In this document: positions 6,821 to 61,808 of the stretch, in pieces
How the letters are laid out: each line of letters begins with the position of its first letter
Numbering within the stretch: the first letter of the stretch is position 1
Assembly: GCA_038247415.1 (NCBI GenBank)
Contig: JBBRUX010000002.1
Coordinates: 32,001-96,000, forward strand
Direction of reading: 5' to 3'
DNA from: Chitinivibrionales bacterium
GTDB taxonomy: Bacteria; Fibrobacterota; Chitinivibrionia; Chitinivibrionales; WJKA01
DNA: 64,000 nt
Position numbers and translations under genes: made by a program
The notes under the pieces: generated by a model
The model's input: only the letters and a program-made list of their open reading frames with translations
What the model was told of the DNA's origin: nothing
Databases searched by the model: none

Positions 6821-8341
6821 TTATTTCTTGGCAACAGCAGGGATTTTTACACCCTTTGGTATTCCCTTGAAACCAGTAACAACAGTCTTGATTCCCGCAT
6901 CATTCATTTCCTCTTCGGCGCGAATGAGTGGGTTATAGTTCTGAAGGTTGCGTTCGCCATTAGGAGCGCCAGCCTTAAACCATACGCGAGGCGATACCAT
7001 ACCGTACATAAGAGGAAGATACGGCAAAAATTCCGATGATCCTTCTGTTGATCGATGCGAGAAGAAAGCAGAAAAGCCACCCTTGGCAATATTTTCGAGC
7101 GCAGCTTCTAACGAAGCAACGCCAATTGCTTTGCAATCTGCAACGACCTTAGCAAGATCACCACGAGCATCCAAAAATGATTTGACAACCTTAGCATCTG
7201 CAACACCAAGGGTAATTTCGGAAGCTAAACGAGTTTCGGTAAACGTTCCTGCCTGGTTAAGCTTAATAAGAACGGCATTTCCTGCACGATCCTTACGATC
7301 TTTACCGCACAAAAATGGAATAACATAGCGCATTTGAGTAACTGCTAAATCGTCGAGAACAATTTGAACGCGATCACCAAAACGAGCATTCATAAGCTTA
7401 TGTGCTTCTACGTCATTTTCGGAACCAGGATCTTCCATGGTAACGAAATTTGGTGCACTATTAACAACTTTTCCATCAAAATCGATAAGTTCTTCGCGGC
7501 TTTTTTCGCCAAGACCAGAAAAGCGCATATTGTAACGACCAGCTTTAATGAGCTCTTCGCCTTTTTGAACTTCGGAAAATGCATTATCGGTTCCGATTGC
7601 GTAATCTGTTTCTTTAAGTCCAAGCTGCTGTGCACATTCTTTAATGCGGTTAAGACCTTCGAAATTATCTTTAACAGGGAAAACAAATCCACGTTCTTTG
7701 GCTGTTCCTGTTGGTAAACCATCGCGTACCAGGTTCTTTTCGAACTGGCGGAAAAACTTTGTACCTGTGGTAAAAACACCCTTCACCGATTTTTCGTTCA
7801 TAGCAAAGAAAAACATTTCCTGAATATCTTGTTTTGTTCCAGGAACATGTTCGCCACCACATACCATATTAAACGCAATATTTGGCATGTTGAATGTTTT
7901 TTGACCCTTAGCAGCAAAAATTTCCCATGCTTTGTATCCCGACGCCTTAAGCAAGGTCTGAAAAAATACTGTTGAGGAAGCAAGAGTTGCATTGCCACCC
8001 CAGATTTTCTTATTAGGACCGGCACCCTTAACCATTGCAAGGTCAAATGCTTCACATGCACGAAGAATATCGGCAGGTGATTTAATTACAACCTTTTTTG
8101 GAAGAAGCGGGATAATGTTTTTTTCTATTGACTTAATGGCTTTATCGTTATCGATATAGATTGCTTCGTTTTCGCCATCGGAGGTTCCCTTTGCAATACC
8201 GTTGCGTTCTTCGATAGTATAGCTGTCTTTTCCTGCGTCAACGCGAGCGCTCATGACACCTTCGAGTGTGAAATTTGCATAGGACGAAAGAATTTCACGT
8301 CCTTTTAAGGTAAACTTGGAAACAACTACCTCTTTAGCCAT
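6821..8341 (-). CDS. eno: Highly divergent enolase-family protein (probable phosphopyruvate hydratase)
   Basis: Recognisable but altered enolase motifs: GREILSS, GTSDGENEA, GGEH, DIQEM, KERGF, GTDNAFSE, MEDP, VLDDL, LIKLNQAGT, SHRS, FKAG and YNPLIRAEE. Start ATG 8341 follows GGAGG. Confidence 0.75.
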   Translation of the reverse strand: MAKEVVVSKFTLKGREILSSYANFTLEGVMSARVDAGKDSYTIEERNGIAKGTSDGENEAIYIDNDKAIKSIEKNIIPLLPKKVVIKSPADILRACEAFDLAMVKGAGPNKKIWGGNATLASSTVFFQTLLKASGYKAWEIFAAKGQKTFNMPNIAFNMVCGGEHVPGTKQDIQEMFFFAMNEKSVKGVFTTGTKFFRQFEKNLVRDGLPTGTAKERGFVFPVKDNFEGLNRIKECAQQLGLKETDYAIGTDNAFSEVQKGEELIKAGRYNMRFSGLGEKSREELIDFDGKVVNSAPNFVTMEDPGSENDVEAHKLMNARFGDRVQIVLDDLAVTQMRYVIPFLCGKDRKDRAGNAVLIKLNQAGTFTETRLASEITLGVADAKVVKSFLDARGDLAKVVADCKAIGVASLEAALENIAKGGFSAFFSHRSTEGSSEFLPYLPLMYGMVSPRVWFKAGAPNGERNLQNYNPLIRAEEEMNDAGIKTVVTGFKGIPKGVKIPAVAKK

Positions 8342-8420
8342 GAGAACCTCCATTGTGTGTTATAAAAAGAAACCTTGAATTATAGCCAGTTTCAAAAAAT
8401 ACATTCCGTACGGCACCATT

Positions 8421-8448
8421 AAAAAAAGGGACTCCACTGCGGAGCCCC
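8421..8448 (-). terminator. Intrinsic terminator after the lipoyl-FabH gene
   Basis: On the minus strand: ggggctcc-gcagt-ggagtccc followed by a T-run. Confidence 0.75.
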
Positions 8449-8487
8449 TCGTTATAGTATCTAATCAGAATCGAATACATGCAAACG

Positions 8488-9816
8488 TTACCATTCGAGG
8501 GTTATTGCCGCCGAGGTTAATCCTGCGCCTACCGTGCAAAAAACAATTTTATCGTTACGGTGCAGAAACTTTTCTATTTCTGCAAGTGCGATAGGAATTG
8601 ACGCACAGGAAGTATTTCCTACATGATCGATATTAAGGAAAAAGCGTTCGAAAGGAACACCGGACTTTTGAGCCGCAGCCTTTAAAATTCGAGCATTTGC
8701 CTGATGCGGTACAACCCAGCGAACTTCGTCTGGTAGCCACCCACTTTGAGCTATTACATCGGCAACAAGCTTTGCAAAACCGCCTGTGGCATGGCGAAAA
8801 AGTGCTTTGCCATCTAAACGAACATATGGATCTGCGGCGGTGCTATTAGCTGGAATTTCGTATCCAGGGTATTCCCGTCTGGCAAGACGCAATCCCGAAG
8901 AATCGGCAAAGAGCATCTCTTTTTTAATACGGTGTCCCTCGCTTGTGCGGGCCAGAACCGTTGCGCCTGCGCCATCACCAAAGAGGAAATAGGTATCTTT
9001 GTCTTTTTTATCGAGTAACCGTGACTGCATATCAACACCAACGCACAAAATGTTATCGGCTATACCCGCAACGAGCATTCCCTTCGCCATAGTCAATGCA
9101 TACAGCCAACCCGAACAAGCAGCGTTCAAATCGAAGCACGGCACACTTGTTATACCAAGCATCCCCTGCAAAATACATGCAGTTGACGGCATAGAAAAAT
9201 CGGGCGTATCGGTAGCAAGTACAATAGCTCCAATGTCCGAAGGCTTTAGTCCAGATTTGGCAATAGCCTCAACTGCTGCATGATATGCGAGTGTTGATGG
9301 TTTTTCGTCAATGTCTGCCCAGCGACGTTCTTTGATGCCTGTTACGCCAAAGATATACTCTTCGGTAATATCGGGAAATTCTTTGAGAAGATCGGCATTC
9401 GTTACAACTCGTTTTGGCAAATACGAACCAATGCCAAGTAAACTAACTTCGGTATTAAAACCCAATGAGGCAGCAGCTGGTTTTGGTTGCGCTTTTGGCG
9501 CTACGGGCTCTTGCGGAGCTGCTTCTGGTTGAGTAGCTTTTGGAGCTGTTGCCAAAAATGCTGCGTCGCTCGTTTGAATTTCGATAACGGGCGTTTCAAA
9601 GGAAACCGTGGCACTTGCAGCTTCAAGAATGCGAACAACAACACCTGCAGCCGGAGCTTCAAATTGAAATGTTGATTTTGCGCTTTCTGCTTCTGCTAAA
9701 ACCGCACCCTTTACAAAGGTATCTCCCGGTTTAACGTTCCACGAAATAATTGTGGCTTCTGTTTCAGCTGCTGCTTGCGCTGGCAGTGATAGTGTTGTCG
9801 TAATCATGTGACTCAC
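8488..9816 (-). CDS. Fusion protein: N-terminal lipoyl/biotinyl carrier domain + Ala/Pro linker + beta-ketoacyl-ACP synthase III (FabH)
   Basis: Lipoyl domain: ATIISWNVKPGD...VLAEAESAKSTFQFEAPAAG. Linker: APKATQPEAAPQEPVAPKAQPKPAAA. KAS III: GIGSYLP, TGIKERR, DLNAACSGW (Cys), FGDGAGA, VPHQAN (His), GNTSCAS (Asn) and GAGLT. Confidence 0.9.
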   Translation of the reverse strand: MSHMITTTLSLPAQAAAETEATIISWNVKPGDTFVKGAVLAEAESAKSTFQFEAPAAGVVVRILEAASATVSFETPVIEIQTSDAAFLATAPKATQPEAAPQEPVAPKAQPKPAAASLGFNTEVSLLGIGSYLPKRVVTNADLLKEFPDITEEYIFGVTGIKERRWADIDEKPSTLAYHAAVEAIAKSGLKPSDIGAIVLATDTPDFSMPSTACILQGMLGITSVPCFDLNAACSGWLYALTMAKGMLVAGIADNILCVGVDMQSRLLDKKDKDTYFLFGDGAGATVLARTSEGHRIKKEMLFADSSGLRLARREYPGYEIPANSTAADPYVRLDGKALFRHATGGFAKLVADVIAQSGWLPDEVRWVVPHQANARILKAAAQKSGVPFERFFLNIDHVGNTSCASIPIALAEIEKFLHRNDKIVFCTVGAGLTSAAITLEW

Positions 9817-11774
9817 CGTAATTCTCCCATCATGGAGGTAATAGCTTCGCGAATAGTATCGATATTAGGCAAATATTGTTTTTCGAGTTCAGGTGCAAAA
9901 GGAACTGGAATATCGGGGGCGCCAATGAGACGTGGCGCTGTTTTAAGTGAAGAAAATGCCTCTTCAACAATTTTTGCAGAGAGCGTTGCCCCAATTCCCG
10001 CAGTTACCCCAGCTTCTTGAACAATTAAAAGGCGTCCTGTTTTGCGAACCGATGCAATGAGGGGTTCCAAATCAAAAGGATTTAAAATAAATGGGTTCCA
10101 GATATCCATCGAATATTTTAGCGTTGATGCCAAAGTTTGTACATGTTTAAGCATTGCGCCAAAACCAATAATGGTGATATCCGACCCCGTCGAGTACGAT
10201 CGAGATTTAAAAACATTTGAAACATCGCCATCAAAGGAGATATCACCCGTGCTTGAGCCATACAGCAATTTATGCTCGAACACCAAGCATGGGTTTGGAT
10301 CGTAAAATCCTGCCACAAGCGCTTCGAACGTTTCTTGTGGTGTAAATGGATACAAAAGTTTAAGACCAGGAAAACGAGACCAGAGCCCATCAAATTCTGC
10401 CGAATGAAAAGCACCAAGCGTTACGCCCCCACCACAGGGGAACCGGTATAATATTTGAGCTCCTTGATGGGCTCTAAAAAACCAGGTTCCCGCATTGAGA
10501 CCAATTTGTGTAACGGCCTCAGTTCCAAAATCGGCAAATTGAAATTCTATAATAGGCTTGGCACCACATTGCGATGCCCCAAGCGCAAAACCGGCAATTC
10601 CCGCTTCGGCAATGGGCATATCCATAACGCGATGTTCACCAAATTTCTCGAATAATCCCTTGCATGTTTTAAAAGCAGACCCATACGGCCCAATGTCTTC
10701 GCCAAGCAAGAGTGCCGACGGTTCGTTTGAGAGGATATATGAAAGTGCCTGAGTAACAGCGGTATTATTTTTAGCTTTTGTTTCGGCAAATGGCTTAAGC
10801 TTTGGTATTTCTGACGAGGCAAACACTTTAATTGACGACAGTGGAAAGGTTGGTCGTCCTAATTGAGTTGCCCGACCACACGCTTCGGTTACAAGATCAC
10901 GTGCAGAAGCTTCGAGAGCATCGATATCGGCAGCACTCATTGACAATTCGGTTTCGAGCACACTACGCGCCCGTGCAATTGGTTCACGCGTCATCCAAAT
11001 GGTTCGTTCGGCTTCGGTTACATATTCGGCATTATCGTATACTGCATGACCTGCAAGTCGAAGCGTTTGAGATTCGAGAATATAAGGTTTGGATGTTTCC
11101 TTCATGATGTCAAGAGCATCGCACACCGACAAATACACGGCCCATGGGTCACATCCGTCAACCGTTTTGCCCAAAATGCCATACCCTAGTGCCCTATCGG
11201 ATAAATTGGCACAATTATACTGGTATCGTGTTGGGGTTGAATAGGCATAATGGTTGTTTTCGATAAGAAAAAGAACGGGAATGTTGCGCACCGAAGCAAT
11301 ATTAACGGACTCGTGAAAATCCCCCGTTGATGTTCCACCATCACCAATAACGGCGCAACCATATACCTCTTCGTTTGCTTGACGAGCGGCATATACGCCA
11401 CCAACAACCAAGGCCAACATATCACCTAAATGGCTTATCATAGGAAAGCGGCGCATGGGCACATTTCCATGATGCACATTGCCTTCTCGCGCATGAGTTA
11501 TTGAACCCTCATTCGCCAAATACTGACAAAAGAGCGCAAAGAGATCGGCGCCTTGCATAACATGCGCACACAAATCGCGATGCAAAAAAGAGAGAACATC
11601 TTTACCAGGGCGAAACGGCAACCCCAGACCAATATTTGTTGCCTCGTTGCCCATACAGGGAATAACTGTACCGCGCGCTTTTCCCTGTCGATACAGCATA
11701 ATAGCTGCATCATCAAATGCACGTGACAAAAGCATATAATGATACGCTAAAGGATAAAACGCTTCGCGAGACAT
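9813..11774 (-). CDS. Fused E1 alpha/beta subunit of a 2-oxoacid (probably branched-chain) dehydrogenase
   Basis: TPP motif GDGGTSTGDFHE...ENNHYA, RLAGHA, LLGEDIG, DMPIAEAG, EFQFADF, GAFHS and FEHKLLY. It overlaps the next gene by 4 nt. The start is uncertain: ATG 11774, ATT 11831 or the ORF-track GTG 11888. Confidence 0.9.
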   Translation of the reverse strand: MSREAFYPLAYHYMLLSRAFDDAAIMLYRQGKARGTVIPCMGNEATNIGLGLPFRPGKDVLSFLHRDLCAHVMQGADLFALFCQYLANEGSITHAREGNVHHGNVPMRRFPMISHLGDMLALVVGGVYAARQANEEVYGCAVIGDGGTSTGDFHESVNIASVRNIPVLFLIENNHYAYSTPTRYQYNCANLSDRALGYGILGKTVDGCDPWAVYLSVCDALDIMKETSKPYILESQTLRLAGHAVYDNAEYVTEAERTIWMTREPIARARSVLETELSMSAADIDALEASARDLVTEACGRATQLGRPTFPLSSIKVFASSEIPKLKPFAETKAKNNTAVTQALSYILSNEPSALLLGEDIGPYGSAFKTCKGLFEKFGEHRVMDMPIAEAGIAGFALGASQCGAKPIIEFQFADFGTEAVTQIGLNAGTWFFRAHQGAQILYRFPCGGGVTLGAFHSAEFDGLWSRFPGLKLLYPFTPQETFEALVAGFYDPNPCLVFEHKLLYGSSTGDISFDGDVSNVFKSRSYSTGSDITIIGFGAMLKHVQTLASTLKYSMDIWNPFILNPFDLEPLIASVRKTGRLLIVQEAGVTAGIGATLSAKIVEEAFSSLKTAPRLIGAPDIPVPFAPELEKQYLPNIDTIREAITSMMGELR

Positions 11775-12152
11775 CCGATGAGGATACCGAATAAGCGTAT
11801 CTGGAGGATATAATCTCGATAATTCCGAAATAAGAGACCCCTTTACCAATAAAGTGCTTATTTGTTGAATGCGAAAATTGCGCAGCACTCAAGATCTGAT
11901 GCTTCCCCGTGGAACCGCATAAGCACAGGCTTTGAAAATAAGTCATTGCGATCGCTACGGAAAGGATGATTTAGGTTAAAAATGTGTTAGGAATCTAAAA
12001 CAGAGTAAGAATTTGGAAGAAGGGCTCTCTTTGGATTATTTTTAATTTCCTTTAAAGTGCCGATATTCTAATCTATATGTATTGGTCGAATGCCTCTCAA
12101 AAGAGCGTATCACCAAAAATATCGGAATTATCTTAATTGTGAGGAGGATAGC

Positions 12153-30907: not shown

Positions 30908-32047
30908 ATGAAGACTACAGACTATGAAAGCATAATGAGCAAAACGGTTCCTGGTGTTGATCGTTTTATGAAAAAGACTTTTTCTAAAGTAGAAATTTCC
31001 ATCGAAGACGAGGAATTGCTTAAGAAAGTGTCTTCAGGGGCCTCGCTTATTACCTGCACCCATCGCAGCCATTGTGATTATTTTTTGCTGGGTGAGCTTT
31101 TATGGAAAGAAAAATATTTTTCTAATATCCGCTTTGCCGCTGGTGATAACCTAACCACGCTTCCTATTTTAGGCCAAAAATTTCTTAATTGGGGTGCCTT
31201 TCCCGTTTCACGCGATAGAGCTAACGATCGAAATTACATCCTTGAATTATGCAACCAATCCGTTGAAATGCTCGAACAAAAGCAAAATATCATTGTTTTT
31301 CCCGAAGGCGGGCGAAGTTACAAAGGAGAAATGCTCGAAATCAAGCAAACCCTTTTGGGCTCTGGTGTATTGGCTCAATCTCGTAATCCAGACAAAGATT
31401 TTTATTTTGTTCCCGTTGCTATATCGTATGAACAATTACCAGAATTACTTTATTTTAAAACCGTAGAAGACGGTAAAAAACTTCGCAAAGACGGCAAAGG
31501 TTGGTGGGATGCATTAAAAGGCAACGCTCTCTATTTTGGAGGTGATCTTTATGCCTTTGGTAAATTTCTTTTCGCCCATCGATTTCATAAAAACTATGGA
31601 CGCGTGTATGTAGATATTGGTAAACCAATTCTTATTCGCGAAGCGGCCGATCTTATAACCCTTTTTAATCCAAAAGCCCCCAACGAATTTTGGGGACACA
31701 GAACTGCCCTTAAACAGATTGCCGCTCAACTGAGAACGACGCTCCTTTCTCTGTATCGAATCCTTCCTCACCATGTGGTAGCGTACCTTATTATCAAAAA
31801 AGGGTGCTCATCAAAACACTCCTGCTTTGTTGCAGCCGAAGGCATTGTCGACCAGATCATAACTGCTGGGCTTAATACAAAAACGCTTTCATCACTTACC
31901 ACACGCGAGATTATTACTCAAGGACTATCCCTGCTCTCTATCATGAAAGGCATTCGCCTTCACAATGATGCTCTTGAAACACTAAACCCCGATGTAATTT
32001 CGTATTACTCTCAAACTCTTATTCCTCATCTTGTGGAGCAACAATAA
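30908..32047 (+). CDS. Glycerolipid acyltransferase (PlsB/PlsC family)
   Basis: THRSHCD (HX4D), FAAGDNL, GAFPVSR, FPEGGRS and VPVAISYE. Confidence 0.85.
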   Translation: MKTTDYESIMSKTVPGVDRFMKKTFSKVEISIEDEELLKKVSSGASLITCTHRSHCDYFLLGELLWKEKYFSNIRFAAGDNLTTLPILGQKFLNWGAFPVSRDRANDRNYILELCNQSVEMLEQKQNIIVFPEGGRSYKGEMLEIKQTLLGSGVLAQSRNPDKDFYFVPVAISYEQLPELLYFKTVEDGKKLRKDGKGWWDALKGNALYFGGDLYAFGKFLFAHRFHKNYGRVYVDIGKPILIREAADLITLFNPKAPNEFWGHRTALKQIAAQLRTTLLSLYRILPHHVVAYLIIKKGCSSKHSCFVAAEGIVDQIITAGLNTKTLSSLTTREIITQGLSLLSIMKGIRLHNDALETLNPDVISYYSQTLIPHLVEQQ

Positions 32048-33447
32048 TGCCGTTTCACCAATACCTCTCTCTTCCTACGGCAGTTGAACTCGAGAGCACC
32101 GATAAAATTTCTGCCATTAGTGAACTTATCTCAATCCTTTGCAAAGCAGAGGGCATCAAACGCCCAAAATCTATTGTTGCAGAGGTTCTTAAACGTGAAG
32201 AATCATCGTCTACCTTTATAGGAATGGGCATTGCAATTCCACATACGCGCGGTGCAATTAAAGATGATTTTGCCATTCTCATTGGGCGAAGTATCGAGGG
32301 CGTTAATTTCGATGCAGCTCGGGGAGCATTAGCTCATATCATTGTTCTGGTAATAGGCAACCAAGACGAAACAGATTATAGCAAACAAATTCTTTTGCTC
32401 TCCGAAATTGCCTCATGTTTTAAATCCGAAATTGTGCGCGATCAAATATTAAGCCATAAAGTTCCCGCAGATGTTAAGGCGATTATATCATCCTTCATGC
32501 TTTCGAGTAGTACATTCGATCTGCGTGGCATAAGTAAATCTACTTCAAAGATATCCGATCCTGTTCTTTCGGCCGCATCGGGACTTGCAAAAGATATCAA
32601 AGCTGCTGCAATTTTTATTTTTGCCGATGCTGTTTTAGAAAACGATTTTATCGATAAGCTTCGCGTTAAGCAAAATATTGTTGTAGTCTCTAGTGTTAAA
32701 ACGCGATTCGATCCAGAAGACAAACGAATAAAAGCATGCATACAGGCCCCGCCATTTCTTTCTTCTCGCACCGGGCAATTAAAAATTGGTGTCCTTTTAG
32801 CACTCTCACGCAATCTGATTTCCAAAGAAGATCGTATAGTTTGCATCAGTGGTAACTCTAAAAGTGGTGAACTCGATACAATTGTTGCCATCGATATTGC
32901 GCGTGAATACGAATTCTACTTTACAACACCACAAACGGTTTTGCCTCCCGATGTAGAACCTGGTGTTCTAGAACGCATTCTTGGACTTGCAGGTGAAATA
33001 GCAGTGGAAGGCCGTGAAGGTAGACCTACAGGGACAATTTTTGTGGTGGGTGATACCAACACGGTTAATTCTCATGTACGGCAGCTCATTATTAATCCTT
33101 TTAGAGGCTATTCAGAGGCCGAGCGCAATATTATGGATCCCGGCCTCGACGAAACCATCAAAGAATTCGCCTCTATAGATGGTGCCTTTATTATCACCGG
33201 AGATGGTATTGTTCTCTCTGCTGGCAGCTATCTACGCCCTCTGGCCGACATTGACAACCTCCCGAGTGGTTTGGGCACACGGCACACCGCTGCCGCTGGA
33301 ATAACCGCCTGCAGCAATGCTTTGGCCATAGCAGTTTCGGAATCTACCGGTGCCATTACCCTCTTTAAAAATGGGGCGGTTTTATTATCTCTTTCTAAGC
33401 CTGTTATGTATGGCAAAGGAGTTCTTCCTCGAATAAACATGCAATAG
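32047..33447 (+). CDS. PTS EIIA (Ntr/Fru-type) domain fused to a DacZ-type diadenylate cyclase
   Basis: EIIA: REESSSTFIGMGIAIPH. Middle DacZ-like domain. DAC: EGREGRPTGTIFVVGD, NPFRG, EFASIDGAF, GTRHTAAAGIT and VSESTG. Confidence 0.88.
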   Translation: MPFHQYLSLPTAVELESTDKISAISELISILCKAEGIKRPKSIVAEVLKREESSSTFIGMGIAIPHTRGAIKDDFAILIGRSIEGVNFDAARGALAHIIVLVIGNQDETDYSKQILLLSEIASCFKSEIVRDQILSHKVPADVKAIISSFMLSSSTFDLRGISKSTSKISDPVLSAASGLAKDIKAAAIFIFADAVLENDFIDKLRVKQNIVVVSSVKTRFDPEDKRIKACIQAPPFLSSRTGQLKIGVLLALSRNLISKEDRIVCISGNSKSGELDTIVAIDIAREYEFYFTTPQTVLPPDVEPGVLERILGLAGEIAVEGREGRPTGTIFVVGDTNTVNSHVRQLIINPFRGYSEAERNIMDPGLDETIKEFASIDGAFIITGDGIVLSAGSYLRPLADIDNLPSGLGTRHTAAAGITACSNALAIAVSESTGAITLFKNGAVLLSLSKPVMYGKGVLPRINMQ

Positions 33448-35297: not shown

Positions 35298-36077
35298 ATG
35301 TCTCCTACGCTACGATTTATTCTCGAAGAGAGCAATTCTCCTGCATTCAATATGGCTGCCGATTCTTGGCTCTTTACCACGGCACACAAGCGAGAAGAAA
35401 TTGTTATCCGTTTTTATGGCTGGGATCCCGCTTCTATTTCTTTGGGGTATATGCAAAACCCAACACTGGATCTTGACCTTTCTGCACTGCGCACGCAAAA
35501 AATTGGTTTTGTCAAGCGCATTACCGGGGGAAGAGCCATATACCACGATACCGATCTCACCTATTCGGTGTCATTTTCCACGGCCCATGCAATGCTAGGA
35601 TCCACTATTCGCCAAACATACAAACTCATTGCGCAATGCCTTTGCAACGGACTTGCTCTTGGGGGATTAGAAACTAATTTTCATACCAAAGAAATCGATC
35701 CACGCGCAGTACGATCCAATACAAAATTGCCCTGTTTTTTGGCTCCTAACCGTGATGAAGTAATGGTTGACAATAAAAAGCTTATCGGTTCAGCTCAAAA
35801 ACGAGGAAGTCCTGGTGTTTTGCAGCACGGGTCTATTCCCCTTTCAATGGCTTTCGCGCAACTTCCCGATTTTCTTTCGATATCAAACGAAGAGCGCACT
35901 GCGCAAAAAAAACTTCTAATTTCATCCTGTACCTGCATTCACGCGTCTGCACCATCTTTAACAAAAGATAAACTCGTTTCACTGCTGTGTACGGGATTTG
36001 CAGAAACTCTTGCGTTGCCTGCAGAATATGTCGGCTGGACTCAACAAGAAAAAGATGCCATTAATGCCTGCGGGTAA
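35298..36077 (+). CDS. Lipoate-protein ligase / octanoyltransferase (LplA/LipM-like, catalytic domain only)
   Basis: FNMAAD, RFYGW, SLGYMQ, KRITGGRAIYHD, KKLIGSAQKR and LQHGSI. Confidence 0.85.
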   Translation: MSPTLRFILEESNSPAFNMAADSWLFTTAHKREEIVIRFYGWDPASISLGYMQNPTLDLDLSALRTQKIGFVKRITGGRAIYHDTDLTYSVSFSTAHAMLGSTIRQTYKLIAQCLCNGLALGGLETNFHTKEIDPRAVRSNTKLPCFLAPNRDEVMVDNKKLIGSAQKRGSPGVLQHGSIPLSMAFAQLPDFLSISNEERTAQKKLLISSCTCIHASAPSLTKDKLVSLLCTGFAETLALPAEYVGWTQQEKDAINACG

Positions 36078-50140: not shown

Positions 50141-50488
50141 TTAGCTTTCTTTAGATCGGGCTGCCATGGTGCAATTTCCGCTAAAATATGCGCCTTCACT
50201 AATAATGAGTTCTTTGGCTTTCAAATCTCCCTCAAGAGATGCATGTGATTCAAGTTCAACGCGATCTTCTACACTTAAATTGCCAACAATTCTCCCACCA
50301 ACCATAGCGCTCTTAGCGGTAATCTCGGCCTCAACATACCCTGTTGCCCCAATGGTTAGCATTTCCACTGTTTTAAGTATGCCTTTAAGCGTTCCATCGA
50401 TACGAATAGGGTGGGGTACTGCGATAGTACCTTCAATCACGGTTCCTTCACCAATGAGAGTATATGCGCCTTTGCCGTGCTTATCCAT
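50141..50488 (-). CDS. Bactofilin (polymer-forming cytoskeletal protein)
   Basis: TLIGEGTVIEG...IRIDG...G repeats and LIISEGAYFSGNC. Confidence 0.9.
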   Translation of the reverse strand: MDKHGKGAYTLIGEGTVIEGTIAVPHPIRIDGTLKGILKTVEMLTIGATGYVEAEITAKSAMVGGRIVGNLSVEDRVELESHASLEGDLKAKELIISEGAYFSGNCTMAARSKES

Positions 50489-50500
50489 AAGAGCCTCCGG

Positions 50501-51349
50501 TTATTCTTTAGATCCTACAAGTATATATATCATTGGATCAACATTTTTACCATCTTTTACTACTTCATAATGAACATGTGGTGCTGTGGATCGCCCTGAG
50601 TTTCCACACAGTGCAATTGTTTGCCCACGTTTGATGTCGTCGCCTTTTTTAACAAGAATTTGCGAACAATGACCATATCGAGTGACAAAACCAAATTTAT
50701 GCTTAATAATCACAAGCATTCCCAAAAATTGATCATTGACAACATCCAACACATATCCCGGTGCAGTTGCCCGAATAGGCGTTCCAATAGAAGCTGCAAT
50801 ATCAATACCACAATGCGTTTCGTCAGATGCTTTATTAGATATCTGGAATAATCGAGTTGTCCATCCGTCAATTGGTCGAATATTGGGGGTTGTTGCCCAA
50901 TAAGAATTAAATGATTCGTCTTGATGTGCCGAAACCGTTTTTGTGTTTTGTTTGGATCCTTGCACCGGCTGTTGAGCATTTTCGGCAAGGGTATCGCTGA
51001 TATTGGCTGCAATTACTGCAGGTTTATACATTGCGCGGGGATTTGTTTCGGTAGCAATTTTTTCCAGATAGCGCGAGAGCTCTTCAAGTTTCGTACTATT
51101 TTGAAGCCCTGCAATAAGTCGGGCTTTTTCCTGCGTTAATCGCTCTTTATCTTTTCGTAAAGCATCAACGAGTTGCAGGCGTAATCCAATATGGCCAAAA
51201 TAAAGGACAAAAACAACAACAGCAAGTGATACTGACGCAGCAAATAAAATAAGTGTATGAATAATATTCTTATGTAATCGTATCGAGAACGGCTTAGAAT
51301 TGTCGTCCGATACGAACATAATCGTATAATATCGTTTCACTCGACGCAT
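50501..51349 (-). CDS. Membrane-anchored M23 family metallopeptidase
   Basis: N-terminal TM and coiled coil, HCGID (HxxxD), TRYGH and GNSGRSTAPHVHYE (HxH). Confidence 0.9.
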   Translation of the reverse strand: MRRVKRYYTIMFVSDDNSKPFSIRLHKNIIHTLILFAASVSLAVVVFVLYFGHIGLRLQLVDALRKDKERLTQEKARLIAGLQNSTKLEELSRYLEKIATETNPRAMYKPAVIAANISDTLAENAQQPVQGSKQNTKTVSAHQDESFNSYWATTPNIRPIDGWTTRLFQISNKASDETHCGIDIAASIGTPIRATAPGYVLDVVNDQFLGMLVIIKHKFGFVTRYGHCSQILVKKGDDIKRGQTIALCGNSGRSTAPHVHYEVVKDGKNVDPMIYILVGSKE

Positions 51350-51367
51350 AAAAGCCTTTTTATTACC

Positions 51368-52261
51368 TTATCGAGATATATGATTCATAAGCAGATCGTA
51401 TATGCGATTAAAATCATCTTTACTGAAATAATTAATTTCTATTTTTCCTTTATCTTTTGCTGCTGGCTTAATTACAATAGGGGAACCAAATCGATATTGC
51501 AATTGCTCAATAACTGCGGCTAAATCTGGGTCTCGTGGTGCAATTGTTTCATGAGCTTTTTTATGGGATTCTTTTGGCTTTTTATCTTTACCTACCGTTG
51601 CCAAAGCTTCTACATCGCGCACGGTTAAACCATCTGCAATAATGCGCTCTGCGAGAGCTAATTGTTTTTGTTCATCGTCAAGCGCCACAAGGCTTCGTGC
51701 ATGCCCCGCGGTAAGCTTGTTTTGAGAAAGCATATCTTGAATTACCTGCGGTAATTTTAATAAGCGCAAAGCATTAGTAATAACACTTCGACTTTTGCCA
51801 ACTCTTAAAGAAAGCTCTTCGTGAGACAATCCACATTCAAGCAAAAGCTTTTGATACGCATACGCCTTTTCAAGCTCATTGAGGTCTTCGCGCTGGATAT
51901 TTTCTACAAGCGCCATCTCCATCATTTCACGATCGGTAATAGATGGTTTCACAATGGCAGGAACTTGATCATTACCTAAAAAGCCCATTGCCCGAAACCG
52001 TCGTTCACCCGATATTATTTCATATCCATCGTGCTTTTTACGTAGAACTATTGGCTGTAATAATCCTTGATTTTTAATACTTTCTGCAAGACCATGAATT
52101 TCTTCTTCGTTAAAAACAGTTCGAGGCTGAAATGGGTTAGGCCGAATTGCATTGATATCAACAAAGACTACTTCGTTGCCACTGCCCAATTCTTCGGTAT
52201 CTTGTGGAATTAAATTTGTAAGGCCACGCCCGAGAGCGCGACGAGCTAAGGGCTTAGCCAT
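51368..52261 (-). CDS. parB: Chromosome partitioning protein ParB
   Basis: ALGRGL, PNPFQPR, GLLQPI, ISGERRFRA, ENIQREDLN and HTH. Confidence 0.96.
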   Translation of the reverse strand: MAKPLARRALGRGLTNLIPQDTEELGSGNEVVFVDINAIRPNPFQPRTVFNEEEIHGLAESIKNQGLLQPIVLRKKHDGYEIISGERRFRAMGFLGNDQVPAIVKPSITDREMMEMALVENIQREDLNELEKAYAYQKLLLECGLSHEELSLRVGKSRSVITNALRLLKLPQVIQDMLSQNKLTAGHARSLVALDDEQKQLALAERIIADGLTVRDVEALATVGKDKKPKESHKKAHETIAPRDPDLAAVIEQLQYRFGSPIVIKPAAKDKGKIEINYFSKDDFNRIYDLLMNHISR

Positions 52262-53036
52262 GATTAACAATTTCCTTTGCAAGCTTCAAATAATTTTCTG
52301 AGCCACTCGACATAATATCGTACAAAATAATTGGTTTACCAAATGAGGGAGATTCCGACAATTTAACATTACGCGTAATAACAGCATCAAAAACTTTGCC
52401 CGAAAAATAGGAACGAACTTCTTCCGACACCTGGCGGCATAAATTTAATCGTCCGTCGTACATGGTAAGCAATGCGCCTTCGATGGTAAGTTTAGTATTA
52501 AGCGTTTTTTGCACCAAGCGAATAGTATTGAGCAATTCTGCCAAACCTTCAAGCGCGTAATATTCACACTGAATTGGAATAAGTACCGAATCTGCCGCAG
52601 TTAAAATATTAATCGTTAACAATCCAAGGGATGGGGGAGAATCGATAATAATATATTCGTATTCATCTCGAATGCTCTCCAGCGCCATTGATAGTTGTTT
52701 TTCACGAGCAAGAACATTTACCAGCTCAATTTCTGCAGCTGCTAAATCGGGTGTTGCTGGAACAATTGATAAAAAGGCAATATCTTGGCTCTTAATAACA
52801 ACATCAGCAATGGCGGTTTGCAGAGCACCATGACGACGATGTGTTAACACATCATAAATAGATTGTTGTATCGTGCTTTTATCAACACCAATTCCTGTTG
52901 TTGCATTTGCTTGGGGATCCATATCAATTAAAAGTGTTTTATGTTCTGCAGCAGCCAAACAAGAAGCAAGATTAACTGAGGTTGTTGTTTTACCAACCCC
53001 ACCTTTTTGATTACAAACTGCTATTACTTTACCCAC
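52254..53036 (-). CDS. parA: Chromosome partitioning ATPase ParA/Soj
   Basis: NQKGGVGKTT, DMDPQANAT, DSPPSLG, PIQCEYYALEG and LSESPSFG. Confidence 0.96.
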   Translation of the reverse strand: MGKVIAVCNQKGGVGKTTTSVNLASCLAAAEHKTLLIDMDPQANATTGIGVDKSTIQQSIYDVLTHRRHGALQTAIADVVIKSQDIAFLSIVPATPDLAAAEIELVNVLAREKQLSMALESIRDEYEYIIIDSPPSLGLLTINILTAADSVLIPIQCEYYALEGLAELLNTIRLVQKTLNTKLTIEGALLTMYDGRLNLCRQVSEEVRSYFSGKVFDAVITRNVKLSESPSFGKPIILYDIMSSGSENYLKLAKEIVNHG

Positions 53037-53051
53037 AAGCTACCCACCCAT

Positions 53052-53203
53052 TGTTCATATGTTATCAACATTATACTAACACACTCATTAAACTGTTACT
53101 CTTTGGTAATATCCTAAATATTTCCTATATATATCATACTCTTATGATACTTTTTGTTTGTTGATAATCTTATTTCATATCCAGATATATAAAGTTTTCC
53201 ACA
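53052..53203. promoter_or_regulatory. Cluster of DnaA-box-like sequences in the rsmG-parA intergenic region
   Basis: TTATCAACA at 53062-53070, its reverse complement TGTTGATAA at 53159-53167, and TTTTCCACA at 53195-53203, with an AT-rich core between them. Confidence 0.6.
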
Positions 53204-53249
53204 TCAATTTCGCTTAAAGAAACACACACATCATGCACGTTACATTTCA

Positions 53250-53936
53250 TTATATGGGCAGCAATTCTAAGGAAACCAATTTTAATCCAAAAATCTGTTT
53301 TCCAAGATCGTATTCTGCAATTTCTGAAATGCGAGCATGTGATGCTTTAGTAGATGTGATGTTTTCTAATTCTGTGGCAAAATCTTTTCCTTTAAAAGTA
53401 TAAATCCTACCATCGGGTTGCGAAAGAAATGGTTTGGCCATATCTGCTATTTCTGCAAATGTACCAACACCCCGGCTTACTACATAATCAAACGGCTTAG
53501 TTTCTGGATCAAGCGCTTCCACTCGCCCCGGAAAAACAAATACATTTTCTAACACTAATTCTTCAACAATTTCACTTAAAAACTTTGCCTTCTTTTTATT
53601 TGATTCGGCTAAAACGATATCCAGGTCAGGGCGAAAAATCCGTGTAGGTATTGATGGAAAACCACCTCCAGCGCCAACATCCAAAATTCGGGCATTCTTT
53701 TTAAATCCAAATAAAAGTAGCGGTTGTAACGAATCGCAAAAGTGACGAATAAATAAATTTCCTTCATCCTTTTTTGAAACCAAAGATGCTAAATCATTCC
53801 ACTTAAGCAAAAGTGCCATGAAGCGCAAAATATAATCTCGCTGAACCAAGTCGGGTGTTAAACCAAGTCGTTCAAGCTCTTTCAACTCATACAATTCTTT
53901 GGCCTTTTCCATAAACTGAGCGGGAATCTTATTCAT
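53250..53936 (-). CDS. rsmG: 16S rRNA m7G527 methyltransferase
   Basis: LLKWN, RHFCDSL, LDVGAGGGFP, ESNKKK, GRVE and VSRG; located between mnmG and parA. Confidence 0.93.
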   Translation of the reverse strand: MNKIPAQFMEKAKELYELKELERLGLTPDLVQRDYILRFMALLLKWNDLASLVSKKDEGNLFIRHFCDSLQPLLLFGFKKNARILDVGAGGGFPSIPTRIFRPDLDIVLAESNKKKAKFLSEIVEELVLENVFVFPGRVEALDPETKPFDYVVSRGVGTFAEIADMAKPFLSQPDGRIYTFKGKDFATELENITSTKASHARISEIAEYDLGKQIFGLKLVSLELLPI

Positions 53937-53955
53937 AGATGAACATCTCCACTAT

Positions 53956-53971
53956 TGTTTCACGTGAAACA
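53956..53971. other. parS centromere-like site
   Basis: Perfect palindrome TGTTTCACGTGAAACA. Confidence 0.95.
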
Positions 53972-53974
53972 TAT

Positions 53975-55810
53975 TTATTGTTGCGCTACATACACCATGA
54001 GGATAGAAACATCAGCGGGGGTAACCCCAGAAATCCGGGCAGCCTGCCCGAGGGTGGCTGGTTTTATTGCAGAAAGCTTTATACGAGACTCTGTTAATAA
54101 ACCTGGAATTGTTTGATAATTGATTGATTGTGGAATTGCGATAGTATCAATTTTTGCCATACGCTCAACATTTTGATTCTCACGAGCAACAAAGCCACTA
54201 TACTTAACATCAGCTTCTACTCCACAAATAAGCTCTCTATCAATAACATTTAAATTTAAAAATGAAAGAATATTTGTGAGAGAAACTTCCGGACGTTTAA
54301 GCACTTCGTAAGCCTTTGCTTGGGATGTAATTAAAGTATTACTAAAACGGTCGTTCCAAGAATTATGATTAATCGTTGTAATTTTCAACGCACCAACCAG
54401 CTCTTTTTTTCCTTCCCAAAACTTTCTGCGCGCCCCAATTGTGTTTGCATCAACAAGATTAAGTGAATGAGCAATTTCCATAAGACGAAAATCTGCTGTA
54501 TCTTGTCGCAATAATAATCGATGCTCAGCTCGAGAAGTAAACATACGATAGGGTTCTTGTGTACCCCTAGAAACCAGATCATCTATTAACACACCAATAT
54601 ATGCTGCATCTCGCTTAAGAACTAATGGTGGAAGCCCAAGGACCTTCTGCGCTGCATTAACACCAGCAATTAAACCCTGGCCGCCAGCCTCTTCATATCC
54701 GGATGTTCCATTTATCTGCCCGGCAAAAAACAAACCCTCAACAACACGCGATTCTAGCGATGGATGCAATTGCGTTGGGTGAAAAAAATCGTATTCAATC
54801 CCATACCCTGGTCGAATTATTTTGGCCGATTTTAAACCAGGAATACTTTGTACTAATTGAACTTGAACTTGAAATGGCAAACTCGTTGATAAACCATTCA
54901 AATACATTTCATGAGTATGTAAACCCTCAGGTTCTAAAAATAATGCATGGCCATCCCTCTCTCCAAACCTAACCACTTTATCTTCAATAGATGGACAATA
55001 ACGAGGACCAACGCTTTGAATTTTACCAGTATAGAGGGGTGAGAAATTCAGATTATTTAAGATGATCGAATGAGTATCCGCGCATGTTCGGGTTGCATAA
55101 CAAACTACCTTATTGGTTGGTATTTCTTGCGTGCTAAACGAAAATGCCCAAGGAAAATCATCCCCGGGTTGCTTTTCCATTTTAGAAAAATCTACAGAAC
55201 GACCATCTATTCGGGGAGAGGTGCCTGTTTTTAACCGACCACTTTTTATACCTAATTCTGCCAACGACTCTGTAAGTCCACACGATGCCGGCTCGCCGGT
55301 GCGCCCCCCAGGAAAAGAAGTGAGCCCCATATGAATAGTGCCTGATAAAAATGTTCCGTTAGCCAAAACAATTGCTGTACATTCTATTACTTCGCTAGAA
55401 TCCATAAGCACTGAAAAGGCCTTATTACTAACAGGATTTATTTTTTTAACCATCCCCTGCAAAAAAGAAATCCCCATAACGGATTCAAGAAGCTCTCGAC
55501 AATATGATCGATATGCATGCTTATCTGCTTGGGCCCTGTTACCCCAAACAGCCATACCTTTTGCGGTATTTAACATCTTAAAATGAATACCGGTTTTATC
55601 AATTATTTTCCCCATGAGCCCACCCATGGCATCGATCTCCCGGACAATGTTCCCCTTGGCAATCCCACCAATAGCGGGATTGCACGACATGTGACCAATA
55701 AGATCGATGTGTGAAGTAATCATAAGCACACTAACACCGCGGTTTGCTGCAGCGTTTGCTGCTTCAACACCGGCGTGTCCCCCTCCAATTACTACAACAT
55801 CAAATTTCAT
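53975..55810 (-). CDS. mnmG: tRNA uridine-5-carboxymethylaminomethyl(34) synthesis enzyme MnmG (GidA)
   Basis: VIGGGHAG, MSCNPAIGG, RLKTGT, GPRYCPSIEDK, AGQINGTSGYEEA and EPYRMFTSRAE. Confidence 0.97.
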   Translation of the reverse strand: MKFDVVVIGGGHAGVEAANAAANRGVSVLMITSHIDLIGHMSCNPAIGGIAKGNIVREIDAMGGLMGKIIDKTGIHFKMLNTAKGMAVWGNRAQADKHAYRSYCRELLESVMGISFLQGMVKKINPVSNKAFSVLMDSSEVIECTAIVLANGTFLSGTIHMGLTSFPGGRTGEPASCGLTESLAELGIKSGRLKTGTSPRIDGRSVDFSKMEKQPGDDFPWAFSFSTQEIPTNKVVCYATRTCADTHSIILNNLNFSPLYTGKIQSVGPRYCPSIEDKVVRFGERDGHALFLEPEGLHTHEMYLNGLSTSLPFQVQVQLVQSIPGLKSAKIIRPGYGIEYDFFHPTQLHPSLESRVVEGLFFAGQINGTSGYEEAGGQGLIAGVNAAQKVLGLPPLVLKRDAAYIGVLIDDLVSRGTQEPYRMFTSRAEHRLLLRQDTADFRLMEIAHSLNLVDANTIGARRKFWEGKKELVGALKITTINHNSWNDRFSNTLITSQAKAYEVLKRPEVSLTNILSFLNLNVIDRELICGVEADVKYSGFVARENQNVERMAKIDTIAIPQSINYQTIPGLLTESRIKLSAIKPATLGQAARISGVTPADVSILMVYVAQQ

Positions 55811-55821
55811 ACTTTTTCCAA

Positions 55822-55837
55822 TGTTTCACGTGAAACA
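55822..55837. other. parS site
   Basis: Perfect TGTTTCACGTGAAACA. Confidence 0.95.
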
Positions 55838-55871
55838 TCTTATGTTAAAATTGAGGCCATCAAAAGGGCTG

Positions 55872-55887
55872 TGTTTCACGTGAAACA
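55872..55887. other. parS site
   Basis: Perfect TGTTTCACGTGAAACA. Confidence 0.95.
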
Positions 55888-55888
55888 T

Positions 55889-57262
55889 TTATTTTCCAAT
55901 ACAAAATTTAGAGAATATCTCATTAATAACCTCTTCGCTGGTTGTTCTGCCAAAAAACTCATCAAACAGCAAAAGTGCCTTGGTAATACTTTGTGCATAA
56001 ACGTCTTCGCCAAATTGTGCAACAGAATCTGCATAGGTAAGCGATTCAACCAACCTAGTTCCCAGATCTTCGTGACGTGAATTTAACATAACGGAGTGAT
56101 CCATACAATCTAAATAATTTTCTTTTACCCAGCTTCCAACATAGCAAATGAGTTGCTCTCGAGATTCTGAATCAAACGAAGATATAGATAGAATTGGAAT
56201 ATTATTGTTTTTAAAAAACAATTCCTTGTTCGAATCTGTTGATAAGTCTATTTTGTTGATAACAGACCAAATCTTGCCCGCTACACCCTTATTCAAAATA
56301 TCTGTTTCGTTGGCAATAAAGGGTTGGTTAGCTGGAGTTATCCACAACACTAGGTGTGCATGTGAACAAACATCCCAACTCCTATCAATTCCAATTTGCT
56401 CAACGGGGTTATCAGAATTGCCAATACCTGCAGTATCAATAAGACATACTAAACTATTTTCAATTTCTAACGATTCTGATACTAAATCTCGGGTGGTTCC
56501 TTCTGTTTCATGAACGATAGATCGATCACCACCTACAAGTATATTAAAAATAGTAGACTTACCTGCATTTTTAGGACCAAATAAAACAATTGTTAGCCCT
56601 TTTTCTAGGGTTTTTAATCGATCTCTGATGCATAATTCAGCTTCTATATCAGTCTTCAGTACGGATAACTTCTCCAATATAGAGTTAAATTGTTCTGGAT
56701 TTGGGGTTTCTTCTGGAAACTCTAGGCCAGATTCTAATAAAGAAAGCGCTGAAACGATTTCTTGTTTCCACTGCATAATTTTTTTTGCAGATCCACCATG
56801 ATACATTTCTAACGCTATTTTATGTTGAAGCGGGGTGTGTGCTTCGATCAATCCATGAATCGATTCTGCTTTTAAAATATCTAATTTTCCATTTAAAAAT
56901 GCCCTGCGTGTAAACTCGCCTTTTCCAGCAAATCGCATACCCACAAAAACCAAGGTTTCAAGTATTGCTAATGGAACGAGTTTTCCCCCATGGCAGATAA
57001 CTTCAACCATATCCTCACCAGAAAAGGATCTTGGGGAACAATATTTTATTGCTGTAATTTCATCAATACAATTTTTAGTTGTGGGATGATAAATAGAATA
57101 AAGATGTATTGTGTTTGTGGTAGCTTTGAGAAAAAGGCTCCCCTTGGAGCCAAGACAAATAGCAAAAAGAACATGCGCATCTTTTCCGCTTATTCGCAGA
57201 ATTGCTAGAGCGCCAACGCCCGGTGGGGTAGCGAGGGCAACTATGGTTTTTTGATCGTCCAT
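55889..57262 (-). CDS. mnmE: tRNA modification GTPase MnmE (TrmE)
   Basis: TIVALATPPG, SFSGED, GEFTRRAFLNGK, GPKNAGKS, GTTRD, DTAG, NKID and FCIGK. Likely start ATG 57262. Confidence 0.96.
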   Translation of the reverse strand: MDDQKTIVALATPPGVGALAILRISGKDAHVLFAICLGSKGSLFLKATTNTIHLYSIYHPTTKNCIDEITAIKYCSPRSFSGEDMVEVICHGGKLVPLAILETLVFVGMRFAGKGEFTRRAFLNGKLDILKAESIHGLIEAHTPLQHKIALEMYHGGSAKKIMQWKQEIVSALSLLESGLEFPEETPNPEQFNSILEKLSVLKTDIEAELCIRDRLKTLEKGLTIVLFGPKNAGKSTIFNILVGGDRSIVHETEGTTRDLVSESLEIENSLVCLIDTAGIGNSDNPVEQIGIDRSWDVCSHAHLVLWITPANQPFIANETDILNKGVAGKIWSVINKIDLSTDSNKELFFKNNNIPILSISSFDSESREQLICYVGSWVKENYLDCMDHSVMLNSRHEDLGTRLVESLTYADSVAQFGEDVYAQSITKALLLFDEFFGRTTSEEVINEIFSKFCIGK

Positions 57263-57278
57263 ATGCCCCGCCTTTGTT

Positions 57279-59162: not shown

Positions 59163-59407
59163 AATACTGTCCTTTCAGGTTTTACAGGATCATACCCACC
59201 ACGAGAGAGTGGATTACACTTAAGAAAACGATATACAATTTTTGGTAAGGCAACATGCAACGGTAGTACTTTAATAGCTTCTATTGCATATGCGCTACAA
59301 GACGGCTCATATTTGCATACGCCATCTGAGAACGGCACAACCAATTTAAAAAATCTAATAAAGATAGAAAAAATTATGGTTTTGATCTTTGAATACATTT
59401 CTGCCAT
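59159..59407 (-). CDS. yidD: Membrane protein insertion efficiency factor YidD
   Basis: CKYEPSCSAYA and RFLKCNPLSRGGYDPV. Confidence 0.92.
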   Translation of the reverse strand: MAEMYSKIKTIIFSIFIRFFKLVVPFSDGVCKYEPSCSAYAIEAIKVLPLHVALPKIVYRFLKCNPLSRGGYDPVKPERTVL

Positions 59408-59727
59408 GAATCAAATGATCCTACCTGTTTTTCGAATGAAAAATTCTGATGTGAAAGAGGCTTAATGAGAAGATTATAAAAAGGAGGACCGCTTCTTATA
59501 CGTGATCTAAAAATCTCCCGACAAACACGTTTTATATAATTTCTTTCGACTGAACTACCAAGTTTTCTAGAAACTAAAACAGCCAGTCTATCAAATTTTT
59601 GGTTGTTTATACAAGAAATATAAACAACTCCATTACTACAAACCCATTGTTTTCCAGAACGCACAAGAACAGATATTTCGCTTTTTCTATATATCCGTTC
59701 TTGTTTGGAAAAAGAATTGTTTTTCAA
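59374..59727 (-). CDS. rnpA: Ribonuclease P protein component
   Basis: FSKQERI and VSRKLGSSVERNYIKR; located between rpmH and yidD. Confidence 0.88.
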   Translation of the reverse strand: MKNNSFSKQERIYRKSEISVLVRSGKQWVCSNGVVYISCINNQKFDRLAVLVSRKLGSSVERNYIKRVCREIFRSRIRSGPPFYNLLIKPLSHQNFSFEKQVGSFDSWQKCIQRSKP

Positions 59728-61800: not shown

Positions 61801-61808
61801 AGTTAGCT

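Follow-up and report, generated by a model that had tools for sequence, protein, structure and literature searches.

A lipoyl-tethered FabH paired with a fused E1 in Chitinivibrionales: a candidate coenzyme A-independent start of fatty-acid synthesis

A 64,000-nt stretch of DNA from a Chitinivibrionales bacterium (Fibrobacterota; assembly GCA_038247415.1, contig JBBRUX010000002.1, positions 32,001 to 96,000; hereafter the window) carries a two-gene operon whose products probably form a 2-oxoacid dehydrogenase module of a particular kind: a beta-ketoacyl-acyl carrier protein (ACP) synthase III (KAS III, or FabH) takes the place of the core of the acyltransferase component (E2) and is primed directly from the lipoyl arm. 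Both open reading frames lie on the minus strand, as delimited in an earlier, sequence-only reading of this DNA; a 691-aa frame (gene 1, 9813..11888) encoding a fused E1 alpha/beta component is followed by a 442-aa frame (gene 2, 8488..9816) encoding a lipoyl domain, a linker and a KAS III. The idea of direct transfer is strengthened because the residues that clamp the adenine of coenzyme A (CoA) in canonical FabHs are replaced while the catalytic triad and the ACP-docking arginine are kept, and because 18 fusion-bearing relatives lack any E2 core.

Results

Gene 2 encodes a lipoyl domain, a linker and a KAS III

The product of gene 2 was analyzed through Pfam, NCBIfam, its 120 best homologues and an AlphaFold2 model built on 56 family members. 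Pfam recognizes Biotin_lipoyl (residues 8-80), ACP_syn_III (228-305) and ACP_syn_III_C (356-442) in it, and finds neither E3_binding (the peripheral subunit-binding domain, PSBD; PF02817) nor the 2-oxoacid_dh catalytic domain (PF00198); lacking the latter, the protein is not an E2. The lipoyl domain (residues 5-85; 9562..9804, minus strand) is modeled as a beta-barrel at residues 5-82, and NCBIfam E2 models match this N-terminus. Lys47 (9676..9678, minus strand), in the sequence AESAKS (E-S-A-K motif), is the predicted lipoylation site and is invariant in the 120 fusions; the lysine is also present in the variant architectures described below, including 113 of 116 single-chain forms, where it sits within the canonical E-A-D-K-A motif. 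An Ala/Pro-rich flexible linker without a PSBD follows (residues 86-122; 9451..9561, minus strand), variable in length and sequence across the family and with a predicted local distance difference test score below 50 at residues 91-119.

The remainder of the protein (residues 123-442; 8491..9450, minus strand) is confidently modeled with the KAS III fold. Its sequence shares about 40% identity with FabHs of known structure. Its closest fold matches are the solved FabHs of S. aureus, Aquifex and E. coli (target-normalized template modeling scores of 0.90-0.93), and it passes the cut-offs of TIGR00747 (narrowly, 296.3 against 292.1 bits) and NF006829 (318.5 against 249). The active-site Cys234 (E. 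coli Cys112; 9115..9117), His371 (E. coli H244; 8704-8706) and Asn401 (E. coli N274; 8614-8616), all on the minus strand, are invariant in the 120 homologues, as is Arg376 (8689-8691, minus strand), the counterpart of E. coli Arg249, which we take to be the ACP-docking residue. The sequence-only reading had described gene 2 as a lipoyl domain, an Ala/Pro linker and a FabH with an intact Cys-His-Asn triad, with the E3-binding and acyltransferase domains absent, and each of these points was borne out.

A further feature of the family lies nine residues past the lipoyl lysine, at residue 56 (9649..9651, minus strand): Cys in 119 of the 120 members (E-A-P-C), and Ala in the window's protein alone. 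The same cysteine occurs in P0123, P0128 and P0121, and represents a conserved thiol beside the lipoyl arm.

Gene 1 is a complete fused E1, and the two genes overlap

Gene 1 combines E1_dh (residues 52-344), Transket_pyr (374-544) and Transketolase_C (566-679), and its sequence matches the E1 alpha and beta chains of both pyruvate dehydrogenase (PDH) and branched-chain 2-oxoacid dehydrogenase (BCKDH) in the PDB. The thiamine diphosphate (ThDP)-binding motif, GDG (182-184) to NN (211-212), at 11253..11345 and the cofactor-activating Glu448 (EFQF at 448) are kept in 21-22 of 22 family members. All 22 retain His281 in the alpha part (11046..11048), which aligns with human BCKDH alpha His291 (1dtw_A), and His495 in the FHS motif (494-496) of the beta part (10404..10406), which aligns with Geobacillus E1 beta His128 (1w85_B); all three positions are on the minus strand. 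These two histidines presumably have the roles in reductive acylation assigned to their counterparts. An alpha/beta-type E1 is thus present with its ThDP motif, cofactor glutamate and both catalytic histidines, in agreement with the earlier description of a complete fused E1 with GDG...NN, EFQF and FHS motifs. Its best NCBIfam matches are PDH E1 models, both far under their cut-offs (195 against 411; 202 against 321).

Genes 1 and 2 share a 4-nt GTGA (9813..9816, minus strand) that holds the stop codon of the former and the start codon of the latter, an arrangement that predicts translational coupling of the two genes. GGGAG stands 7 nt upstream of this GTG. An alternative ATG lies three codons further on, and the database copy of the protein (P0001) is 439 aa long; the GTG is favored because the family N-terminus has Ser at residue 2 in 88 of 120 members. 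The start of gene 1 is uncertain between GTG 11888 and ATG 11774 (residue 39), the longest open reading frames of relatives beginning at positions 1 to 52 of the window's version. An intrinsic-terminator-like hairpin of 11 pairs with a T-run (8426..8450, minus strand) closes the operon 38 nt past the gene 2 stop. Since shuffled sequence is expected to give 5.5 such sites where the whole scan gave 7, this hairpin carries weight only through its position and its strength. Overlap and terminator had both been noted from the sequence, as had the absence of E3 (dihydrolipoyl dehydrogenase) and ACP genes from the window; on contig C2, a lipoamide_DH search gave just a 19.5-bit match (C2:87712-87807) and the PP-binding profile none.

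Just downstream of the operon, 6821..8353 (minus strand) encodes a 510-aa enolase-like protein, a divergent representative of the enolase superfamily that matches the Enolase_C barrel only (TIGR01060, 131 bits; cut-off 300). Its gene is not conserved beside the operon in relatives.

The fusion is conserved with its E1 across the order

The 120 best homologues of gene 2, with lengths of about 440 aa and 57-64% identity, all contain Biotin_lipoyl and both FabH domains; their named sources are Chitinispirillum alkaliphilum, Chitinivibrionales, Chitinispirillales and one "Fibrobacter sp." metagenome-assembled genome (MAG). Among 296 genomes of the phylum the fusion was found in 59; of these, 58 belong to the window's order (81 genomes) and 1 lies outside it, while none of the 151 genomes of the largest family has it. 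Of 29 relatives' loci, 28 have a fused E1 immediately before the fusion and the other is truncated at a contig edge; the same order holds in all 20 wider loci. With 120 of 120 homologues, 58 of 81 genomes of the order and the fused E1 always directly before it, the possibility that the fusion is an assembly artefact, which the sequence-only reading had raised, is ruled out. A locus search of the genome contigs with the gene 2 protein alone brought up nothing but lipoyl domains of unrelated proteins (L011-L065).

No other gene of the window accompanies the operon in the 20 relatives' loci. Genes for RadC, an AMP-binding-like protein, a TonB receptor and a GT2-DUF2062 glycosyltransferase protein lie downstream in many relatives; considered as a clue to the pathway, they were set aside as a matter of synteny, not of function.

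One of the 58 genomes (G040, 81% complete; loci C3:427773-428222 and C17:28668-29516) has the fusion only as a 150-residue piece. Its E2 match contains 2 stop codons, and its only FabH-like match to the canonical query contains 13. This pattern suggests decay of the fusion, FabH and E2 genes, or poor assembly.

Sister architectures carry the same parts

A scan of 1.84 billion representative proteins, followed by Pfam and an inspection of cluster names, revealed two related arrangements. P0123 and P0128 (MDX2185493.1, from an Opitutaceae MAG) consist of lipoyl, E3_binding and FabH domains; judged by domain order, such a protein is an E2 in which the catalytic core alone has been swapped for a KAS III. 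The other arrangement joins E1_dh, Transket_pyr, Transketolase_C, lipoyl and FabH domains in one chain, as in P0182 (WP_218080544.1; 1124 aa) of Anthocerotibacter panamensis, which is encoded on a 4.19-Mb contig. A search with this single-chain form gave 167 clusters of proteins of about 1100-1150 aa, with named sources in Verrucomicrobiota, Planctomycetota, Sumerlaeota, Hydrogenedentota, Spirochaetia, Cyanobacteria and Pseudomonadota, and these proteins carry generic annotation only. Two candidates for longer fusions (P0129, P0163) were dropped, their N-terminal parts being read as out-of-frame sequence.

In a quick tree of FabH domains, for which only Shimodaira-Hasegawa-like approximate likelihood ratio supports were computed, the two-gene family and the PSBD forms group together (96), the single-chain forms are set apart in a clade of their own (94) and ordinary FabHs make a third group (97). 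The two clades of lipoyl-tethered FabHs may have had one origin or several.

The CoA-adenine site of the FabH domain is replaced

In E. coli FabH, according to PMC4606726, Thr28 forms a hydrogen bond with the adenine of CoA, Trp32 and Arg151 hold this adenine between them by stacking, and Arg36 binds the phosphopantetheine. With residues numbered on the annotated K-12 record, we aligned the 120 fusions with 112 FabH-length relatives, among them the window genome's own canonical FabH. Gene 2 has Ile150, Tyr154 and Val158 for Thr28, Trp32 and Arg36 (9343..9369, minus strand) and Lys273 (8998-9000, minus strand) in place of Arg151. The position of Trp32 is Tyr in all 120 fusions against Trp in 108 of the 112 relatives, and that of Arg36 is Val in all 120 against Arg in 96; Thr28 is replaced by Ile or Val in 110 of 120 (Thr in 95 of 112), and the position of Arg151 is unconstrained in the fusions (R in 50, K in 34 and M in 33 of 120; Arg in 102 of 112). 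The canonical FabH of the window genome retains all four residues. Gene 2 thus lacks the acyl-CoA donor site of a KAS III.

The single-chain forms have parted with the adenine clamp in other ways. Among 116 single-chain forms Trp32 is found in 2, Arg151 in 0 and Thr28 in 0, with D, G or E at 32 and F, P or Y at 151, while the triad is complete in 116 of 116. P0123 has Ile28, Tyr32 and Val36, as in the window's family, and the Opitutaceae protein P0128 has Arg, Glu, Leu and Tyr at 28, 32, 36 and 151. If a CoA thioester has ceased to be the acyl donor, one would expect the adenine clamp to disappear, and separate clades have lost it through different substitutions; that the condensing and ACP-docking residues are retained agrees with this view. 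The residues replaced would line the mouth of the tunnel, where the lipoyl domain would have to dock. Other pocket positions differ as well, with Tyr at 154, Leu at 207 and Val at 304 in the fusions (8998..9393, minus strand).

The genome supplies the missing functions, and some relatives have no E2

The window genome (3.84 Mb, 96% complete) has a canonical plsX-fabH-fabD-fabG-acpP-fabF cluster, with fabH at G000:C4:100733-101701. The notion of the fusion as a housekeeping starter, which the sequence-only reading had touched upon, does not survive this finding: the fusion is an extra, specialized KAS III. The genome also contains two E3 genes, LipA, BirA, an LplA-like gene and the acpP of the fab cluster, so that E3, lipoylation and ACP functions are available in trans. 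The LplA-like gene (259 aa; 68 bits, cut-off 280) lies in the window itself, at 35298..36077 (plus strand), some 25 kb away from the operon. It is a candidate modifier of Lys47, because it is the only BPL_LplA_LipB-family gene of the genome besides BirA.

A canonical FabH accompanies the fusion in 51 of the 58 fusion-bearing genomes. The canonical query found no match in G003, G075 and G076 (91-94% complete) or in G023, G063 and G078 (68-77%), and the seventh genome is G040. No 2-oxoacid_dh catalytic domain was found in 18 of the 58, and 15 of these 18 are at least 90% complete; E3 is above the cut-off in 13 of the 18. In G016 and G038 there is no strong E1_dh gene other than the partner of the fusion. 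Fusion and E2 core are both absent from one family of the order (8 genomes), in which no E3 rises above the cut-off either. E3 and LipA were also considered as specific markers of the module and rejected, as GcvH is present in all 5 E2-less genomes probed and E3 in 7 of 18 genomes with neither fusion nor E2.

Elsewhere in the window genome (G000:C23:20918-25009, L137), a type III polyketide synthase (PKS)-like gene (DpgA-like, 362 aa) adjoins a FabF-like KAS (454 aa) and a small carrier protein; these genes look like a separate small polyketide or lipid cluster.

A tentative substrate

One fusion homologue, P0004, is attributed by its source to Chitinispirillum alkaliphilum, whose dominant membrane fatty acid is anteiso-C15:0, with iso-C16:0 also present, as reported in PMC4814513. 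The same source gives 16:0 and 16:1 for its relative Chitinivibrio alkaliphilus. Since Chitinispirillum alkaliphilum combines the fusion with anteiso-C15:0 as its main fatty acid, we tentatively suggest, at slightly less than an even chance, a branched-chain 2-oxoacid as substrate, giving 2-methylbutyryl or isobutyryl primers.

Other features of the window

Two regions of the window outside the operon are worth recording. At 32047..33447 (plus strand), a 466-aa protein combines EIIA_2 of the sugar-phosphotransferase system, a DacZ_P sensor and a diadenylate cyclase (DAC) domain, and could link sugar-phosphotransferase signaling to the synthesis of cyclic di-AMP. Positions 50141..62954 hold a gene run of the origin-region type, with genes for bactofilin and an M23 peptidase, parB, parA, rsmG, mnmG, mnmE, yidC and rnpA on the minus strand and, after rnpA, dnaA and dnaN on the plus strand. 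At 60-62 kb the G+C content falls to 0.29 and the GC skew changes sign.

Discussion

A proposed cycle and what weighs against it

We propose the following cycle as the best-supported reading of this module. The fused E1 would decarboxylate a 2-oxoacid on ThDP and reductively acylate the lipoyl-Lys47 arm of the second protein. The flexible linker of about 35 residues would then swing the lipoyl domain to the mouth of the FabH tunnel, where the S-acyl-dihydrolipoyl group would trans-thioesterify onto Cys234. Malonyl-ACP would dock at Arg376, and decarboxylative condensation would deliver a 3-oxoacyl-ACP into type II fatty-acid synthesis, while an E3 encoded elsewhere would re-oxidize the arm. 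Acyl-CoA would be neither made nor used in such a cycle.

Several observations count against this proposal. The entire cycle, including lipoylation of Lys47, is predicted from sequence. The module has no PSBD by which E1 and E3 might find the arm, and the residue before Lys47 is Ala where the DKA motif usually has Asp. In the primer pocket, position 142 is Gln in 119 of 120 fusions against Leu, Met or Ile in canonical FabHs, and this polar residue could have to do with the substrate or with how the dihydrolipoyl group is contacted. Of the 116 single-chain forms, 87 retain Arg36, and the cyanobacterial protein of this architecture has Trp32 as well as Arg36. The 112 proteins of the CoA-site comparison include at least three (P0131, P0132, P0135) that the tree places in the fusion clade, which makes the contrast conservative. 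No conserved neighbor gene points to a pathway. As for E2-less relatives, G030 has a classical E1 alpha and a lipoyl fragment at a contig edge, so its lack of an E2 is probably an assembly gap; 5 of the 18 have no E3 above the cut-off, and the rejection of E3 and LipA as specific markers tells in the same direction. The fatty-acid link comes from one cultured species and fits branched primers without proving them, and the similarity of the E1 is split: Geobacillus PDH E1 beta is nearest to its beta part, whereas its alpha part is most similar to the BCKDH alpha chains of Thermus and human. Finally, the E2-less character stressed by the sequence-only reading applies to the gene 2 module, which indeed has no E2 core, but not to the genome, which has a 2-oxoglutarate dehydrogenase complex (with sucCD and citrate synthase) and a second, classical operon of E2 (446 aa), E3 (470 aa) and fused E1 (822 aa) at G000:C45:10612-15867 (L134). 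An E2 acting in trans is therefore possible in this organism. The C45 operon also means that the E1 alpha/beta fusion occurs in a classical complex of the same genome.

Alternative explanations

It is unlikely, in our estimation, that the FabH domain acts instead as an acyltransferase, passing the acyl group from the arm to ACP or another acceptor without condensation, or that it primes a polyketide or a special lipid. KAS III-like acyltransferases do occur in natural-product pathways, the pocket of the fusions differs from that of canonical FabHs at Gln142 and several other residues, and on C23 the genome has the type III PKS-like gene accompanied by a KAS and a carrier protein; moreover, 51 of the 58 fusion-bearing genomes also have a canonical FabH, so that bulk initiation does not depend on the fusion. 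However, the Cys-His-Asn triad and the ACP-docking arginine are invariant, the NCBIfam FabH cut-off is passed, and no biosynthetic genes are conserved beside the operon. Slightly less likely still is a module that continues to depend on CoA, the arm delivering its acyl group to an E2 elsewhere (here that of C45) or to CoA at the FabH site, with the fusion just keeping the parts together. Such a scheme gains from the classical E2 of the window genome, with its PDH/BCKDH-type fused E1 and E3, and from the arginines that persist at position 151 in 50 of 120 fusions and at position 36 in 87 of 116 single-chain forms. It fits poorly with the 18 of 58 fusion-bearing genomes that have no E2 core and with the replacement of the adenine-stacking Trp32 in all 120 fusions and in 114 of the 116 single-chain forms. 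An intervening CoA would also make it difficult to see why E1, lipoyl domain and FabH are linked in three architectures.

We regard it as very improbable that the N-terminal barrel is no working lipoyl carrier at all, being biotinylated, unmodified, or a docking or regulatory element, with E1 and FabH acting independently. Pfam does not separate biotinyl from lipoyl domains, the motif reads SAK instead of DKA, and BirA is encoded in the genome; yet the lysine is invariant, the MKM biotin motif is absent and NCBIfam E2 models match the N-terminus. The sister forms also speak for a lipoyl carrier, with an E3-binding domain right after the barrel in some and E-A-D-K-A in the single-chain proteins, and the constant partner of the gene is a lipoyl-dependent E1 with its catalytic histidines in place.

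Implications

Few routes by which bacterial fatty-acid synthesis starts are known, those through some FabY variants among them. Starts through FabH with acyl-CoA, through malonyl-ACP decarboxylation and through FabB are named in PMC10869286. If our proposal of a KAS III primed from the lipoyl arm is correct, a route from 2-oxoacid to 3-oxoacyl-ACP without acyl-CoA would be added to these. To our knowledge, this would also be the first swinging arm of a 2-oxoacid dehydrogenase to serve a condensing enzyme where an acyltransferase is usual. The proposal provides a testable explanation for branched-chain fatty acids in anaerobes without any E2, and the two genes offer a small part with which branched or odd-chain fatty acids could be engineered without drawing on the CoA pool. 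The family is a large one that is at present hidden by its annotation, only as "beta-ketoacyl-ACP synthase III" or "2-oxoisovalerate dehydrogenase E1".

Taken as a whole, a broader picture seems to us evenly balanced between true and false: that at least seven phyla start fatty acids in a hitherto undescribed, CoA-free manner through a KAS III that replaces the E2 core and is primed by the acyl-dihydrolipoyl arm, that the two-gene form is the main source of anteiso and iso primers in Chitinispirillum-type anaerobes, and that the three architectures record the rewiring of a scaffold from acyl-CoA production to C-C bond formation.

Comparison with known systems

A literature search for a lipoyl-tethered KAS III or an E1-FabH system found no paper, most subscription-journal papers being outside its reach. 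Within that scope, the suspicion that the architecture might already have been characterized finds no support, and a lipoyl-armed FabH working with an E1 is apparently an arrangement without earlier study.

A close parallel is found in Bacillus, Staphylococcus and Listeria, where a branched-chain 2-oxoacid dehydrogenase (E1 alpha/beta, E2 and E3) supplies FabH with branched acyl-CoA primers. The window's module shares with this route an alpha/beta-type ThDP E1, a lipoyl-lysine arm and the Cys-His-Asn triad of a KAS III, and probably also the same start (2-oxoacid) and end (3-oxoacyl-ACP). It differs in having neither E2 core nor PSBD, in the tethering of the arm to the KAS III and in the fusion of E1 alpha and beta; the CoA-adenine site of its KAS III is gone, so that the acyl-CoA step is apparently skipped. 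With canonical FabH (that of E. coli, PDB 1HN9/1HND, and the genome's own copy) the domain has in common the fold, 35-40% identity, the triad, the equivalent of Arg249 and a pass of TIGR00747, whereas gene 2 adds the N-terminal lipoyl domain and linker and shows the pocket changes L142Q, M207L, F304V and F87M.

The single-chain E1-lipoyl-FabH proteins contain the same three parts in the same order, with the triad invariant and the adenine clamp lost. In the window, however, these parts are divided between two coupled genes, the FabH domain belongs to a separate clade and the replacement residues are others, and the DKA motif is kept in the single-chain forms. The lipoyl/PSBD/FabH proteins P0123 and P0128 belong to the same FabH clade as the window's protein but keep E3_binding between arm and KAS III, where the window's family has a disordered linker only. 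Finally, in the biosynthesis of quinocarcin, one of the tetrahydroisoquinoline antibiotics, an E1-like protein, a lipoyl-E2-like protein and an ACP (QncN, QncL and QncM) load a two-carbon unit onto a carrier protein. There too a ThDP E1 and a lipoyl arm deliver an acyl group into a carrier-protein pathway without acyl-CoA; the acceptor is nevertheless an E2-type acyltransferase within a natural-product cluster that involves no KAS III, whereas in the module described here the arm is joined to the condensing enzyme itself.

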